The position numbers and the translations under genes were made by a program. The notes under the pieces are model-generated. The model worked only from the letters and a program-made list of their open reading frames with translations, was not told the DNA's origin and ran no database searches. A stretch of 64,000 bases of DNA, taken from the IMG/VR virus record IMGVR_UViG_3300031787_000063, positions 1-64,000 of that record; one strand, written 5' to 3'. This document shows, piece by piece, positions 4,194-63,762 of the stretch. Numbering within the stretch: the stretch's first letter is position 1; each line of letters starts with the position of its first letter. The DNA is from a virus.

Positions 4194-4419
4194 AAAAGAA
4201 GCAGAAGAAGTTTTAAGAAAGTTTCTAGAATATAAAATGATGTGGCATAGTCAAGATAACTATGCTAATAAATATGACGTACATCATGCCATGAACGTAT
4301 TAGGTCCAAAAAAAGTAGATGAAATTACTAAAGAATTTCATAAAATTTGGAATGAAGAATGAAACAAATTATTATACTAATAGTTATGATAATTCTTTTA
4401 AATTATATTAAGGCGTAAT

Positions 4420-4680
4420 ATGTTTGCAAAACGAAGTCAAATGATTAAAAATATAGAAGAAAAAATAAAAAGTTGTGGACCTAACACATCTCAAACAGCA
4501 GAAAAAATTCTTGAATTAGTAGAGATGTTTATGGAGCCAAAGTTAAGACCTCTTACTAAAAAAGAAGTTGATGACCATGTCTTAGTAAAGCAGGTTCATG
4601 CGTCAAGAAAAGATGAAGTCAGAGAATACGTAAGTAACCTCGATTATGAAAAAAAACGTGAATGGATTCCGGAGGAATAA
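4420..4680 (+). CDS. small protein, MKRS-family paralogue
   Basis: KRSQMI...AEKILELVE..M.P...WIPEE. Confidence 0.65.
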   Translation: MFAKRSQMIKNIEEKIKSCGPNTSQTAEKILELVEMFMEPKLRPLTKKEVDDHVLVKQVHASRKDEVREYVSNLDYEKKREWIPEE

Positions 4681-60753: not shown

Positions 60754-60961
60754 ATTATTTCAGTAAATATTGATATATAAGTCATTACTATTTCGTACTC
60801 TTTATCAATAGCAGCATCGTTCCGACCCGATTTTTTTTCGGCTGCTGTGACGCAGCGTAAGCTGCGGTATGCACTAAGTTGACAACGAGGTTGACAACCG
60901 TTTCTCAGTATATTTGTTTACATTGTAGATATATACTGTGCATAGATTATTATTCACCTAT

Positions 60962-60991
60962 TCGACTTTTCCTAATAACTCATGCTATAAT
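60962..60991 (+). promoter_or_regulatory. sigma70-type promoter
   Basis: TCGACT-18-TATAAT with extended TG; AAGGAG SD before 61009. Confidence 0.65.
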
Positions 60992-61008
60992 GTTCATAAG
61001 GAGTACTT

Positions 61009-61212
61009 ATGAAAACACCACTTAATATTGGCGATACTTACGAAGCTACTAGGCTGCTAAATCCAAAGAGATTCCCCAAGCAGGAAGATCCTCCTCGTTT
61101 TAAATTACTAGATATTTTTACAAAAGATAATACAGTATTGATAGAATTGGAAGATGGTACAAAGCAAGTAGAATCTGCTTGGTTTATAGAGTTCTATTGT
61201 AAGAAAGTATAA
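61009..61212 (+). CDS. hypothetical protein
   Basis: SD and promoter upstream. Confidence 0.65.
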   Translation: MKTPLNIGDTYEATRLLNPKRFPKQEDPPRFKLLDIFTKDNTVLIELEDGTKQVESAWFIEFYCKKV

Positions 61213-61331
61213 CAAAGTTAATACGGTTTATTCTGCGGAGACAACATGGAGACAACATTTATTCTCATCGGAACACATCTTTTGTTTGCCGCATCCGTGT
61301 GCATAGTTTATACTATCTTTGAGGAGTCTAT

Positions 61332-61652
61332 ATGAACGATAAAGACAAAGAACCTTTTAAGTCTTGGTTTGAACAAGACAGAAAAGAATTTGAAGCAAGA
61401 GAGCCAGCAACATATACAGACTCAGATGAGTGGTGTATGAGAAAAGGCTGGATAGCTGCTTGTAAATACAAAGATAAAGAATACTCTAACTTAATGGATG
61501 CTATGAGTAAGACAAGCCAGTACAATTTCAAACTCCAAGCTGAAAACAAAAAGCTACGTGAAGCTTTGCAATCAATCGGGTATTTTCATCTCAGACCAGA
61601 ACAAGTAATCAGAACGGCTAGAGAAGCACTAAAAAAAGTGAACAAAGAATGA
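61332..61652 (+). CDS. hypothetical protein
   Basis: GAGGAG SD; FKSWF...GWIAA, ENKKLREAL. Confidence 0.65.
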   Translation: MNDKDKEPFKSWFEQDRKEFEAREPATYTDSDEWCMRKGWIAACKYKDKEYSNLMDAMSKTSQYNFKLQAENKKLREALQSIGYFHLRPEQVIRTAREALKKVNKE

Positions 61653-61817
61653 TTTACATGCATAAGAAAAGCGGAGAACTTATCCTAATTAACTGGAGCA
61701 ACGATATGGCTATACACATACAAAAAGAAGATAATCATGGAGTAATCTTCTATTCAGCATGGGTAGCTTTGGAAGATGAATATGAGTTCATTGGCGAACT
61801 GTAAAGGTGGTGCATAG

Positions 61818-62048
61818 ATGAAATACTTATCAATAATTTTTTTGGCTATAGCCTGTTCCCCTTATCACAAACCTCAAGTAGAGTATAGCGTACCTCCGGA
61901 GCTTTCAGATTGTAAGATATTTACTATTTCTGATGGCTGGAAAGAATTGTATGTAGTCAAGTGTCCCAACGCTGATACGACCACTTCTTGGACCAGATCC
62001 TGTGGTAAGAATTGTACCACTACAGAACATGTGACGGTGACTGAATGA
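61818..62048 (+). CDS. Cys-rich lipoprotein
   Basis: FLAIAC lipobox; PPELSDCK...VVKCP. Confidence 0.65.
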   Translation: MKYLSIIFLAIACSPYHKPQVEYSVPPELSDCKIFTISDGWKELYVVKCPNADTTTSWTRSCGKNCTTTEHVTVTE

Positions 62049-62365
62049 GCCAGAAACCACAAAATAAAGTTAAACAAACTTCAGGTGGTATTGGAGTAGA
62101 ACAGTATAATAAAGCTTTGGTTAGAGCTGCAATAGAAGCTACAAAGCTAACCTTTATAAAATCACCCTCTGACCGTCCTCTCGAAATAAATATTGTTGAC
62201 TCTGTATATGCCGTTCCCGGAAAGGTTATGCTTGTCCCAAATGGCACAGAAGTCGATGATCCATCAACTCCATACAAAGATCGCATAAAGCAATTAGAGT
62301 ACGAACTGGCTAAAGCTAAGAGAGCAAAGAAACATATTCTTAGTAATGTACGTACAGGTGCATAG
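62045..62365 (+). CDS. hypothetical protein
   Basis: Last ORF before the non-coding region. Confidence 0.55.
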   Translation: MSQKPQNKVKQTSGGIGVEQYNKALVRAAIEATKLTFIKSPSDRPLEINIVDSVYAVPGKVMLVPNGTEVDDPSTPYKDRIKQLEYELAKAKRAKKHILSNVRTGA

Positions 62366-62477
62366 ATATATAAACACCAATTCTGGCGTATGTATACTGC
62401 CCAAATCAAATTCAAAGTCAAACCCACCTACCCCCCTTGGGGTGGGGAGGGGGGGGGATACTTGACCAAAGCATTTC

Positions 62478-62630
62478 GCTCAGGATTAATACCTGACTGA
62501 TTAACTCGGTCGGATATAATACCTGACTAAACTAATAAGCTCGGATACTAATACCCGACAAAACCATTTTGCTCAACTAATATAATACCTGACTAAATCA
62601 CTTCACTCAGTTATAGGGTATACCCGACCA
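62478..62630. repeat. five-unit repeat array (core ATACCYGAC, 30-35 bp period)
   Basis: Units begin at 62487, 62517, 62549, 62583, 62618. Confidence 0.85.
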
Positions 62631-62639
62631 ATCTAATCG

Positions 62640-62689
62640 GATAGGCAAAGTTTACCTATCTTGTGCTTTTTTTTAAACCATGAGACAAT
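62640..62689 (+). promoter_or_regulatory. promoter P1 with upstream palindromic operator
   Basis: GATAGG-N9-CCTATC then TTGTGC-17-GACAAT (extended TG). Confidence 0.55.
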
Positions 62690-62750
62690 GATTGTATCAG
62701 AAGGAATAAACCTTCTAAAAAGAAAAGGAAAAAAGAGATAACATTAAGAC

Positions 62751-62800
62751 GATAGGCAAAAAGTACCTAGCTTGAGTTATCAGAAAAAAAGAGATACAAT
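62751..62800 (+). promoter_or_regulatory. promoter P2 driving the large ncRNA, with the same operator
   Basis: GATAGG-N9-CCTAGC then TTGAGT-17-TACAAT. Confidence 0.75.
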
Positions 62801-62806
62801 AGATAA

Positions 62807-63385
62807 GAGACAAGGAAACGAGTCTCGATAATCAAACGAACGATTGACGCATAGCGGTAACACTATGATAAGATCGGGGTAGCAGTAAGGTCTGACCTGT
62901 AACGTGACCTGAGTGAGTACCATATCGGTACGGCTATGCAAAGTAGGAGTAATGCCCTACGATAGGTTTTGCGGTGGTGCATTTAGACTCGTCGAGTCAA
63001 TCTATCAGTGAAGTCCAGCTTAAGCAACTGACTCGCTTTGACAAGCATAGGTACAGCGTTTGTCCCTTGTGGTGAGGGACTAAGTGAACAAAGTCACGAA
63101 CTAACGCTTCGCAGTATGTCGATAAGTACAGTAATCGAGTGTAGCAATGCGTCAACTATCAGGTTATAGATGATGCATCTCGTCTGGAAAGTATTACTGG
63201 AGATAAAGGGTATACTGTTTAGTGATTGAATGAGTACTGTATTGAGATTGTAGGGTACAAAAAGTATAGTTTTCCCTATCCTTTAGTAATGCAGTTTTAT
63301 AGTTCGGTATTGCATAGGTAATCTTTACCTACGCTTTACTTGGTGTAAAGCTACATGGTACGATAGTCTCAGTACAGTATTCTTT
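62807..63385 (+). ncRNA. large ornate structured RNA (~575 nt; ROOL/GOLLD-class candidate or new class)
   Basis: No ORF >=60 aa, GC-elevated, more than 10 hairpins, 20-bp closing helix with only G-U deviations, promoter and U-tract at ends. Confidence 0.75.
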
Positions 63386-63429
63386 TTCTTACTGTATTAA
63401 AGAACGATTATTTTTACGATATATCTATA

Positions 63430-63501
63430 CTGGTTAAATTTTTAGGGTAATCGAGTCATGTTTTTTAAAACATTATTCAATTATCCCACAAATTCAACTA
63501 G
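63430..63501 (+). other. long imperfect hairpin (possible RNase III site)
   Basis: About 30-bp symmetric stem. Confidence 0.5.
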
Positions 63502-63543
63502 TTACATTTTTGGGTACAATGCCCAAAATGCATAGGAGGCATT

Positions 63544-63762
63544 ATGATTACAGTTTTTGTCAAGTTTAATAAACACTATGGGGTAGAGCGTATCTATCCT
63601 GATTGCCCGATTACGGAAATCTTTGCCGATATTGCCAAAACGAAAACTTTGAGCGAGAATGATTTAGTGAACATTGAGAAGCTCGGTTATAAAATCGAAG
63701 TCCGTCCCACTGTTTACTATAAGTCCCCATGCGGTAGAGTTACTATTAACTTAGGAGAATAG
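63544..63762 (+). CDS. early hypothetical protein
   Basis: AGGAGG SD. Confidence 0.7.
   Translation: MITVFVKFNKHYGVERIYPDCPITEIFADIAKTKTLSENDLVNIEKLGYKIEVRPTVYYKSPCGRVTINLGE

Follow-up and report, generated by a model that had tools for sequence, protein, structure and literature searches.

Large folded RNAs of bacteria and phages that have no known function (OLE, GOLLD, ROOL, raiA) are few, and each has been structurally surprising. The two described systems closest to the element treated here are ROOL (RF03087), a phage or prophage RNA of ~500-600 nucleotides (nt) with many covarying helices, no known partner or function and a proposed RNA-only assembly (PMC12286853), and GOLLD (RF01998), a large ornate phage or prophage RNA whose expression rises in lytic growth; both form homo-oligomeric RNA-only nanocages (PMC12286853). 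The element itself lies in the first 64 kb (64,000 nt, hereafter the window) of a 79.7-kb phage contig, IMG/VR record IMGVR_UViG_3300031787_000063 (completeness ~95%), inside what a simple map of open reading frames (ORFs) gives as the largest non-coding gap of the genome, 62428-63543. An earlier annotation made from the letters alone, here called the sequence-only reading, had placed at 62807-63385 a large ornate non-coding RNA with its own promoter, expressed very early and either a divergent relative of ROOL or GOLLD or a new class. We find that the stretch is non-coding, is present in RNA libraries and falls outside known families, and that, in six freshwater phages related to one another, selection maintains its fold as a + strand RNA. 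Covariation in these phages, G-U pairs on the + strand, the lack of a conserved ORF and the RNA libraries all speak for a large ornate non-coding RNA. Our best reading is a strongly expressed early phage RNA, analogous to ROOL and GOLLD and a member of neither, which we class as a new family among the large structured RNAs already known from phages; with slightly better than even confidence, we take the locus to encode a structured non-coding RNA that stands alone, belongs to a previously undescribed family and acts in trans as a folded product.

Relatives were collected via the RIIA-like protein encoded downstream: L003 from IMG/VR, L005-L012 from metagenome contigs, and L106-L108 from IMG/VR by an alignment search. 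Ahead of the corresponding early genes, nhmmer and blastn detected homologous ORF-free regions in L003, L005, L006, L009 and L107, with lengths from the upstream promoter of ~540 to ~720 nt. Their conservation is patchy: the promoters, central core and 3' part can be aligned, and entire hairpin domains between these are found in some members and missing from others, a pattern that looks like that of structured RNAs. RNAalifold on five sequences returned 60 pairs, with compensatory changes in 29, including the long 3' helix. From this result and a reading of the sequences we defined a core of 46 pairs; in a MAFFT alignment of the five, 91.9% of cells are paired and 27 of the pairs change on both sides, none of 500 shuffles reaches any measure, and partners slid by 1-3 columns leave 29-50% paired. 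A covariance model built on this alignment (R1) scores 147-200 bits on its five seed sequences and 135 bits on L107, which was outside the seed. With L107 added, the six sequences together have 93.2% of cells paired and double changes at 30 of the 46 pairs (0/500 shuffles equal this; slid partners give 28-49% paired and a covariation score of 0.07-0.12 vs 0.61), so that homologues of the proposed RNA do covary. Among the six, every one of the six pairs of junction hairpin A and six of the seven pairs of the long-range helix PL change on both sides. R1 put the Px and Pz helices of the window out of register, and the pairings 63000-05/63047-52 and CAG/CTG were read by eye.

The fold is also better than expected by chance. 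On the + strand 62807-63400 reaches -181 kcal/mol (z -4.24, 0/100 shuffles as good), compared with -148 kcal/mol on the minus strand (z -3.58), and 62697-63418 (+) has a z of -4.86; by either set of limits the RNA folds better than its shuffles. Every local helix listed by the sequence-only reading was found where it had been placed, including the first hairpin (GAGAC 62807-11, GTCTC 62822-26), and the 20-bp helix with four G-U pairs (63232-51/63363-82) is part of the minimum-free-energy fold and has a counterpart in all relatives examined. A closing helix of 17-21 bp followed by a U-rich tract is present in the window, L003, L006, L009 and L005. At two positions, a G-U in the junction helix and a U-G in Py, the wobble is kept in five of six members; since a conserved G-U would be an A-C mismatch on the opposite strand, the RNA is on the + strand. 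Folded alone, the 3' domain of every member examined reaches -54 to -70 kcal/mol on the + strand vs -33 to -50 on the minus strand, a difference of 10-21 kcal/mol, with 7-11 G-U pairs per member. Conserved wobbles and the energy gap between strands thus back the + strand pairing that had been deduced from G-U pairs.

Two long-range contacts in the sequence-only reading need revision. The pseudoknot drawn between 63191-63220 and 63259-63292 is not upheld, since its ATTACTG arm (63193-99) is already engaged in PL and the partner AGTAAT is not kept in relatives. The complementarity of TTGACGCAT (62844) to ATGCGTCAA (63147) is indeed perfect, but the 3' partner occurs only in the window, L003 and L006; at its position L009 and L107 carry a same-sense UUGACGCAU hairpin presenting UUGAC, L005 has neither, and the pairing is no more than a candidate. 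In L003 and L006 the 3' word is able to pair with a conserved core word, UUGACGCA. The word TTGACGCA has four copies in the window vs 0.78 expected (0/100 shuffles reach four), with three further + strand copies in the early genes just downstream; the word could serve for recognition instead of forming one strand of a helix. Much of the 5' domain is missing from L003, L006 and L005, and its CGGUAA-loop hairpin covaries (CUAAG/CUUAG in L009, GCAUC/GGUGC in L107).

A protein-coding explanation finds little in the sequences. As had been claimed, 62807-63385 holds no ORF of 60 or more amino acids, the longest being 53 and 52 amino acids on the minus strand, and its G+C (GC) content of 0.418 exceeds the genome value of 0.35 and stands at the 96th percentile among windows of 580 nt. 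No reading frame is conserved: stop-free frames reach at most 59-71 codons in five members, and peptide matches between species are of 11-42 residues, in several frames and on both strands. L005 has one longer open frame, which is unshared; the longest ORF with a start is 88 amino acids, from TTG on the minus strand.

Two predicted promoters, P1 and P2, each adjoining a palindromic operator, precede the RNA (Table 1), and a third promoter-like element, P3, stands with the 5' untranslated region of the first early ORF. The TTGAGT-17-TACAAT words on which the sequence-only reading had relied are present at 62772-62800 (P2), before the GAGAC/GTCTC hairpin. Taken alone, the promoter scan does not exceed chance (7 sites found, 6.2 expected), and support for P2 comes from conservation in relatives, not from its scan score: the region is 81-91% identical in L003 and L006, and L107 has TTGACA-17-TAAGCT at the same place. 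The P1 and P2 units are near-identical, with a -10 word of the form GA(C/T)ACAAT and a hairpin straight after each predicted start, and the operator-P1 unit recurs in L006, L003, L009, L005 and L107. Relatives have two or three operator-promoter units per phage, in which the palindrome, GGCA-N5-TGCC in some of them, always abuts the -35 word. P3 is nearly invariant in L003 and L006, takes a variant form in L009, L005 and L107, and from its sequence would function as a promoter; all three promoters have an unusual -10 context in common (GAGACAAT, GATACAAT, GGTACAAT). The hairpin after P1, H0, has a stem that differs in almost every member (GGCA/UGCC in L003, UCGAAGC/GCUUCGA in L009, CGGC/GCCG in L107; RNAfold), which indicates that the hairpin is selected as RNA. 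H1, at the predicted P2 start, is kept in L003 and L006 without covariation and is missing in L009 and L107.

The stretch is held by 20 public sequencing runs, mostly freshwater metagenomes, six of the runs being metatranscriptomes. Contigs of four RNA runs (X10, X12, X13, X15), from four freshwater or lake studies, were placed on 60001-69000, and in each run the contig over the RNA (387-690 nt) is the longest and the deepest on these 9 kb; other contigs have depths of 2.4-4.4 in X10 and 2.1-4.2 in the three other runs. Among the contigs listed, none links the RNA with the early ORFs, and the contig data are compatible with read-through. The four runs show no cover at 60901-62700, and arithmetic on the X10 contig and bin depths leaves nearly none at 63419-63600; a discrete unit would fit this pattern, but such holes prove nothing and neither figure is used as evidence. 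RNA-library contigs thus lie where a transcript of 62807-63385 had been claimed, but the transcript is probably longer: the contigs begin at 62708-62766 and one reaches 63418. Because they bridge P2, at least part of the RNA probably starts at P1 (~62697), and a single start at 62807 was too simple a view. The RNA probably ends near 63418 rather than 63385, and its body measures ~600 nt from P2 and ~720 nt from P1. We infer tandem host sigma-70-type promoters under a common operator, with termination before an independent early-gene promoter. Separately, the contigs of X12 and X13, from different studies, stop at 63250 and 63246, which falls in the first strand of the 20-bp helix and might weakly suggest RNA processing there, or else a block in reverse transcription or assembly.

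We propose that a host sigma-70-type RNA polymerase would transcribe the RNA from both tandem promoters, each of which overlaps a copy of one palindromic operator, and would stop at the long 3' helix with its U-tract and the conserved tail before 63418, while the downstream early genes, including the rIIA- and rIIB-like genes, would use P3. Very early expression is suggested by position, host-type promoters standing upstream of rIIA/rIIB-like genes, and the folded RNA may build up in stable form from the first moments of infection. Its three-dimensional shape would then let it act in trans during takeover, by binding a host or phage factor as a scaffold, cage or decoy; this is the mode proposed for ROOL and GOLLD, as opposed to base-pairing with one mRNA or a leader function. 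Size, conserved helices, conserved unpaired words, a modular periphery and apparent abundance are the reasons for favouring a trans-acting folded RNA; among functional readings, we would give this shape-based mechanism about an even chance, by analogy. If it does act in trans in takeover, it would be a counterpart, made of RNA, of early phage proteins such as T7 Ocr. It is tempting to speculate further, though we consider it unlikely, that the first product of the phage on entry is a self-folding, protein-free RNA machine, either an RNA-only multimeric cage like ROOL or GOLLD or a decoy that disarms a host defence or takeover target, made from tandem promoters in the style of ribosomal RNA that a phage repressor later shuts, and that related phages fill the same early niche with unrelated RNAs; this would amount to a fast-evolving class of RNA-based early effectors. 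As an unrelated addition to the few large RNAs of this kind, the window RNA should be easier to study, being a predicted two-promoter, operator-controlled unit with a terminator, placed ahead of rIIA/rIIB-like genes, with natural variants in which domains are gained or lost and with recovery from lake metatranscriptomes.

It is important to note what weighs against this interpretation. The six known members belong to one phage clade and the per-pair statistics are weak, the peripheral domains are represented by one to three sequences, and the trans-acting mechanism is reached by analogy only. No early-region protein co-occurs strictly with the RNA. The sister phage L106 (IMGVR_UViG_3300042564_004185), whose RIIA is 72-73% identical, lacks the window RNA, and searches found no sequence or profile likeness to it there; the RNA is therefore dispensable for this type of phage. 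Finally, the library evidence consists of contigs, not reads, so that strand and true ends are lacking and each contig has a single depth; runs were selected for containing the stretch, a choice that skews depth towards it, and some carried-over DNA in the RNA libraries is possible.

The most serious alternative, which we nevertheless regard as improbable, makes the RNA a cis-acting leader of the early operon: the fold, or the P1 hairpin with its A-rich tract as a nut- or put-like site, would modify RNA polymerase or terminator read-through and so set the level and timing of rIIA/rIIB and other early genes. boxB and put elements are hairpins just after the promoter start in lambda and HK022, and here a covarying hairpin lies just past the P1 start in all members, with the RNA directly between the tandem early promoters and the first early ORF. 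Yet all members also have the conserved promoter-like P3, with its own 5' untranslated region, before that ORF, and the longest RNA contig stops at 63418 with none of those listed connecting RNA and ORFs. Moreover, ~600 nt and a dozen conserved helices far exceed the needs of known antitermination RNAs, and the P1 and P2 leaders have no boxA-like word in common.

Somewhat less probable again is a replication-origin transcript: made from strong promoters beside an iteron-like repeat array, the RNA would prime or activate DNA synthesis in the AT-rich DNA that follows it. The 125 nt just past the RNA have a GC content of 0.296 and contain a conserved TATACTGGTTAAWTTTTTAG word; on the other side, next to the promoters, all relatives show a poly-C or C/G tract and then a phage-specific repeat array. 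ColE1 RNA II (~550 nt, structured, dependent on its fold) and the promoter-dependent phage origins, with tandem promoters, T7 phi1.1A/B and T4 oriF/oriG likewise stand beside an AT-rich stretch and repeats. Primer RNAs, however, are processed and scarce; the window RNA, which shows no homology to ColE1 RNA II, is near full length as recovered from RNA libraries. Beside the RNA no replication initiator was identified, GC skew tracks gene orientation and marks no origin at the locus, and the relatives share the RNA but have wholly different repeat arrays.

It seems quite improbable that the RNA is a self-processing or mobile element, for instance an intron-like RNA or a ribozyme not yet recognised, although L106 gives the idea some interest. 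After its first early ORF, that phage has an ORF-free, well-folding stretch of 440 nt (z -4.04) that begins with a type II hammerhead (Hammerhead_II, 42.5 bits, the gathering score being 37) and has another hammerhead core at its far end (4391-4437, 25 bits, E 0.006), so that its RNA would be cut from a longer transcript at both ends. Like it, the window RNA is structured, ORF-free and several hundred nt long, and is encoded in the early region of an uncultured phage from freshwater; whole hairpin domains are gained or lost between members, and the contig stops at 63246 and 63250 in two RNA runs might hint weakly at a break. Unlike it, the window RNA has its own predicted promoters and terminator and no ribozyme hit: on 62300-63600 no ribozyme (hammerhead, twister, pistol, hatchet, HDV-like) or intron model in Rfam scores at E<=10, and the RNA interrupts no gene. 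The occurrence of an unrelated, ribozyme-flanked RNA in a sister phage suggests that structured early RNAs may be recurrent and interchangeable in these genomes.

That the RNA is a highly diverged ROOL or GOLLD would be very surprising. It resembles ROOL in being a large phage-encoded non-coding RNA of similar length with many covarying helices and no known protein partner, and GOLLD, first seen partly in lake metagenomes, in having a conserved and a variable part; there are also tRNA genes in the same genome. However, neither RF03087 nor RF01998 gives a hit on 62300-63600, even with permissive filters at E<=10, and of the two possibilities left by the sequence-only reading it is the new class that stands after the Rfam check, not the divergent ROOL or GOLLD member. 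At gathering thresholds Rfam 15 finds nothing relevant to the RNA region in the whole 64-kb window, and on 62300-63600 all 4227 families under permissive filters give only chance-level hits (E >=2). OLE, HEARO/omega RNA, raiA, RNase P, 6S, SRP and group I/II introns have no Rfam match, tmRNA is matched by neither Rfam nor ARAGORN, and ARAGORN finds zero tRNA or tmRNA genes in the window. The nearest tRNA gene is 2.9 kb downstream, not adjacent; ROOL is often encoded beside tRNA islands, and GOLLD, which is larger (often >800 nt), is usually beside or around tRNA genes. The architecture differs as well, with a nested 5' core, a three-way junction and a 3' domain under a 20-bp helix: this is another secondary-structure plan than that of ROOL, and while GOLLD is conserved at its 3' part and less so at its 5' part, here the 5' domain and an insert in the core helix are variable and the middle core is best conserved. 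ROOL comes from Firmicutes or rumen phages and this RNA from freshwater phages, where it has tandem, operator-controlled predicted promoters at the head of early genes. A search by eye found no loop palindrome that covaries between palindromes. Searches by motif and topic found no published description, the 10,006 candidate viral RNAs of PMC10690425 being outside the comparison.

The idea that there is no RNA gene at all, and that the inverted repeats act as DNA in a regulatory or packaging region or belong to a decayed coding region, is largely refuted: the stretch does adjoin operators, repeat arrays and a G/C tract, and its minus strand also beats shuffles (z -3.58), but G-U pairs are conserved only on the + strand, with a large energy gap between strands, compensatory changes occur in long-range helices 60-130 nt apart, RNA-library contigs cover the stretch, and no frame is conserved.

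The layout of the proposed stand-alone RNA and its surroundings is collected in Table 1.

Table 1. Features of the RNA locus and related sites; positions are those of the window unless another source is named.
Feature	Position	Strand	Remarks
Poly-C or C/G tract and repeat array	62428-62630; L003:5600-5880; L005:30-300; L106:3200-3400; L107:6280-6400		
Operator 1, GATAGG-N9-CCTATC	62640-62660	+	abuts promoter P1; from sequence
Predicted promoter P1	62661-62689	+	-35 TTGTGC 62661-66, 17-nt spacer, -10 GACAAT 62684-89; predicted start ~62696
Hairpin H0, AGAAGG-AATAAA-CCTTCT, then A-rich spacer	62699-62716	+	5' end of P1 transcript
Operator 2, GATAGG-N9-CCTAGC	62751-62771	+	abuts promoter P2
Predicted promoter P2	62772-62800	+	-35 TTGAGT 62772-77, -10 TACAAT 62795-800; predicted start ~62807
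Hairpin H1, GAGAC...GTCTC	62807-62826	+	at predicted P2 start
Variable 5' domain	62827-62998	+	four hairpins and TTGACGCAT word (62844-52)
Hairpin CATAG/CTATG, loop CGGTAACA	62850-67	+	5' domain
Hairpin GTACC/GGTAC	62917-31	+	5' domain
Hairpin GTAGG/CCTAC	62943-60	+	5' domain
Hairpin GACTC/GAGTC	62986-98	+	5' domain
Conserved core	62999-63205	+	R1 score 147 bits here; five relatives score 135-200 bits
Helices Px, Py and hairpin Pz	63000-63052 block	+	nested; Px 63000-05/63047-52, Py 63007-11/63033-37
Three-way junction	63055-60/63103-08	+	closing helix AGCGTT/AACGCT
Junction hairpins	63062-80; 63084-97	+	GTCCCT/AGGGAC; GTGA/TCAC
Long-range helix PL	63129-35/63193-99	+	CAGTAAT/ATTACTG around variable insert; then purine-rich GAGATAA tail
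3' domain	63206-63390	+	20-bp closing helix 63232-51/63363-82, then U-rich tract 63380-90
3' domain hairpins	63251-78; 63315-31; 63333-51	+	TAGGG/CCCTA; TAGGTAA/TTACCTA; GCTTTAC/GTAAAGC
3' tail TACTGTATTAAAGAACGATTATTTTTACG	63391-63418	+	conserved in L003, L006, L009; longest RNA-library contig stops here
Word TATACTGGTTAAATTTTTAG	63427-63446		between RNA end and P3, within the stretch of GC 0.296; conserved in window, L006, L009, L005, L107, in part in L003
Promoter-like element P3 GGGTACAATGCCC, 5' untranslated region and Shine-Dalgarno of first early ORF	63512-63546	+	ATG 63544; downstream boundary
TTGACGCA copies, window	62844; 63148 (-); 4599 (-); 37744 (-)		
TTGACGCA copies, genome	64314; 64679; 66819	+	
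RNA-library contig, X10	62729-63418		depth 17.7
RNA-library contig, X12	62750-63250		depth 7.7
RNA-library contig, X13	62766-63246		depth 7.8
RNA-library contig, X15	62708-63094		depth 6.3
RIIA-like gene	genome 67060-68925		GHKL ATPase fold by Pfam; 3.7 kb downstream of RNA
RIIB-like gene	genome 69080-69925		family match
Two tRNA genes	genome 66365-66438; 76665-76746		beyond window; Rfam, 70 and 44 bits
L106 ORF-free stretch, 440 nt	L106:4019-4458		after first early ORF; z -4.04

The phage, uncultured and from freshwater, is by its gene content of an ordinary-looking lytic type, with a family A DNA polymerase, a DnaB-like helicase, a T4-type large terminase and a capsid-like gene, an ERF recombinase and a PD-(D/E)XK nuclease, and a class II ribonucleotide reductase, ThyX and a deoxynucleoside monophosphate kinase. 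On the 3' side of the gap come small uncharacterised proteins (L5 gp82-like, gp88-like, DUF932) and then the RIIA-like and RIIB-like proteins. In T4, rIIA and rIIB are immediate-early genes, and by this likeness it is reasonable to regard the region 3' of the gap as an early region. A second large gap in the genome, 76509-77090 (582 nt), holds at least one tRNA gene and has a 3' end that is also tRNA-like; it is not unusually structured (z 0.84).

Beyond the six members, R1 gave a best E of 1.7 on 79 IMG/VR loci of distant phages with gp82-like genes and zero matches in five phages with 32-41% identical RIIA, distant blastn against INPHARED phages gave no match, and exact-motif scans of IMG/VR recovered only one relative, already known. 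A degenerate core motif picked up two new IMG/VR loci and 11 GTDB loci (185,579 species genomes), all of them chance by R1. Some 20 clusters of close gp82-like proteins are present in Logan and ENA assemblies, and these probably flank further copies of the RNA.

The repeat unit of the arrays upstream of the promoters is specific to the phage: ATACCYGAC in the window and L006, ACTTGAC in L003, CTCTCACTCTTTGAGRGGA in L005, CAGTTGTTTGATA-like in L106 and CGCGCACACGCG-like in L107. Judged by their sequences, such arrays would fit rapidly co-evolving binding sites, for example iterons or packaging sites.

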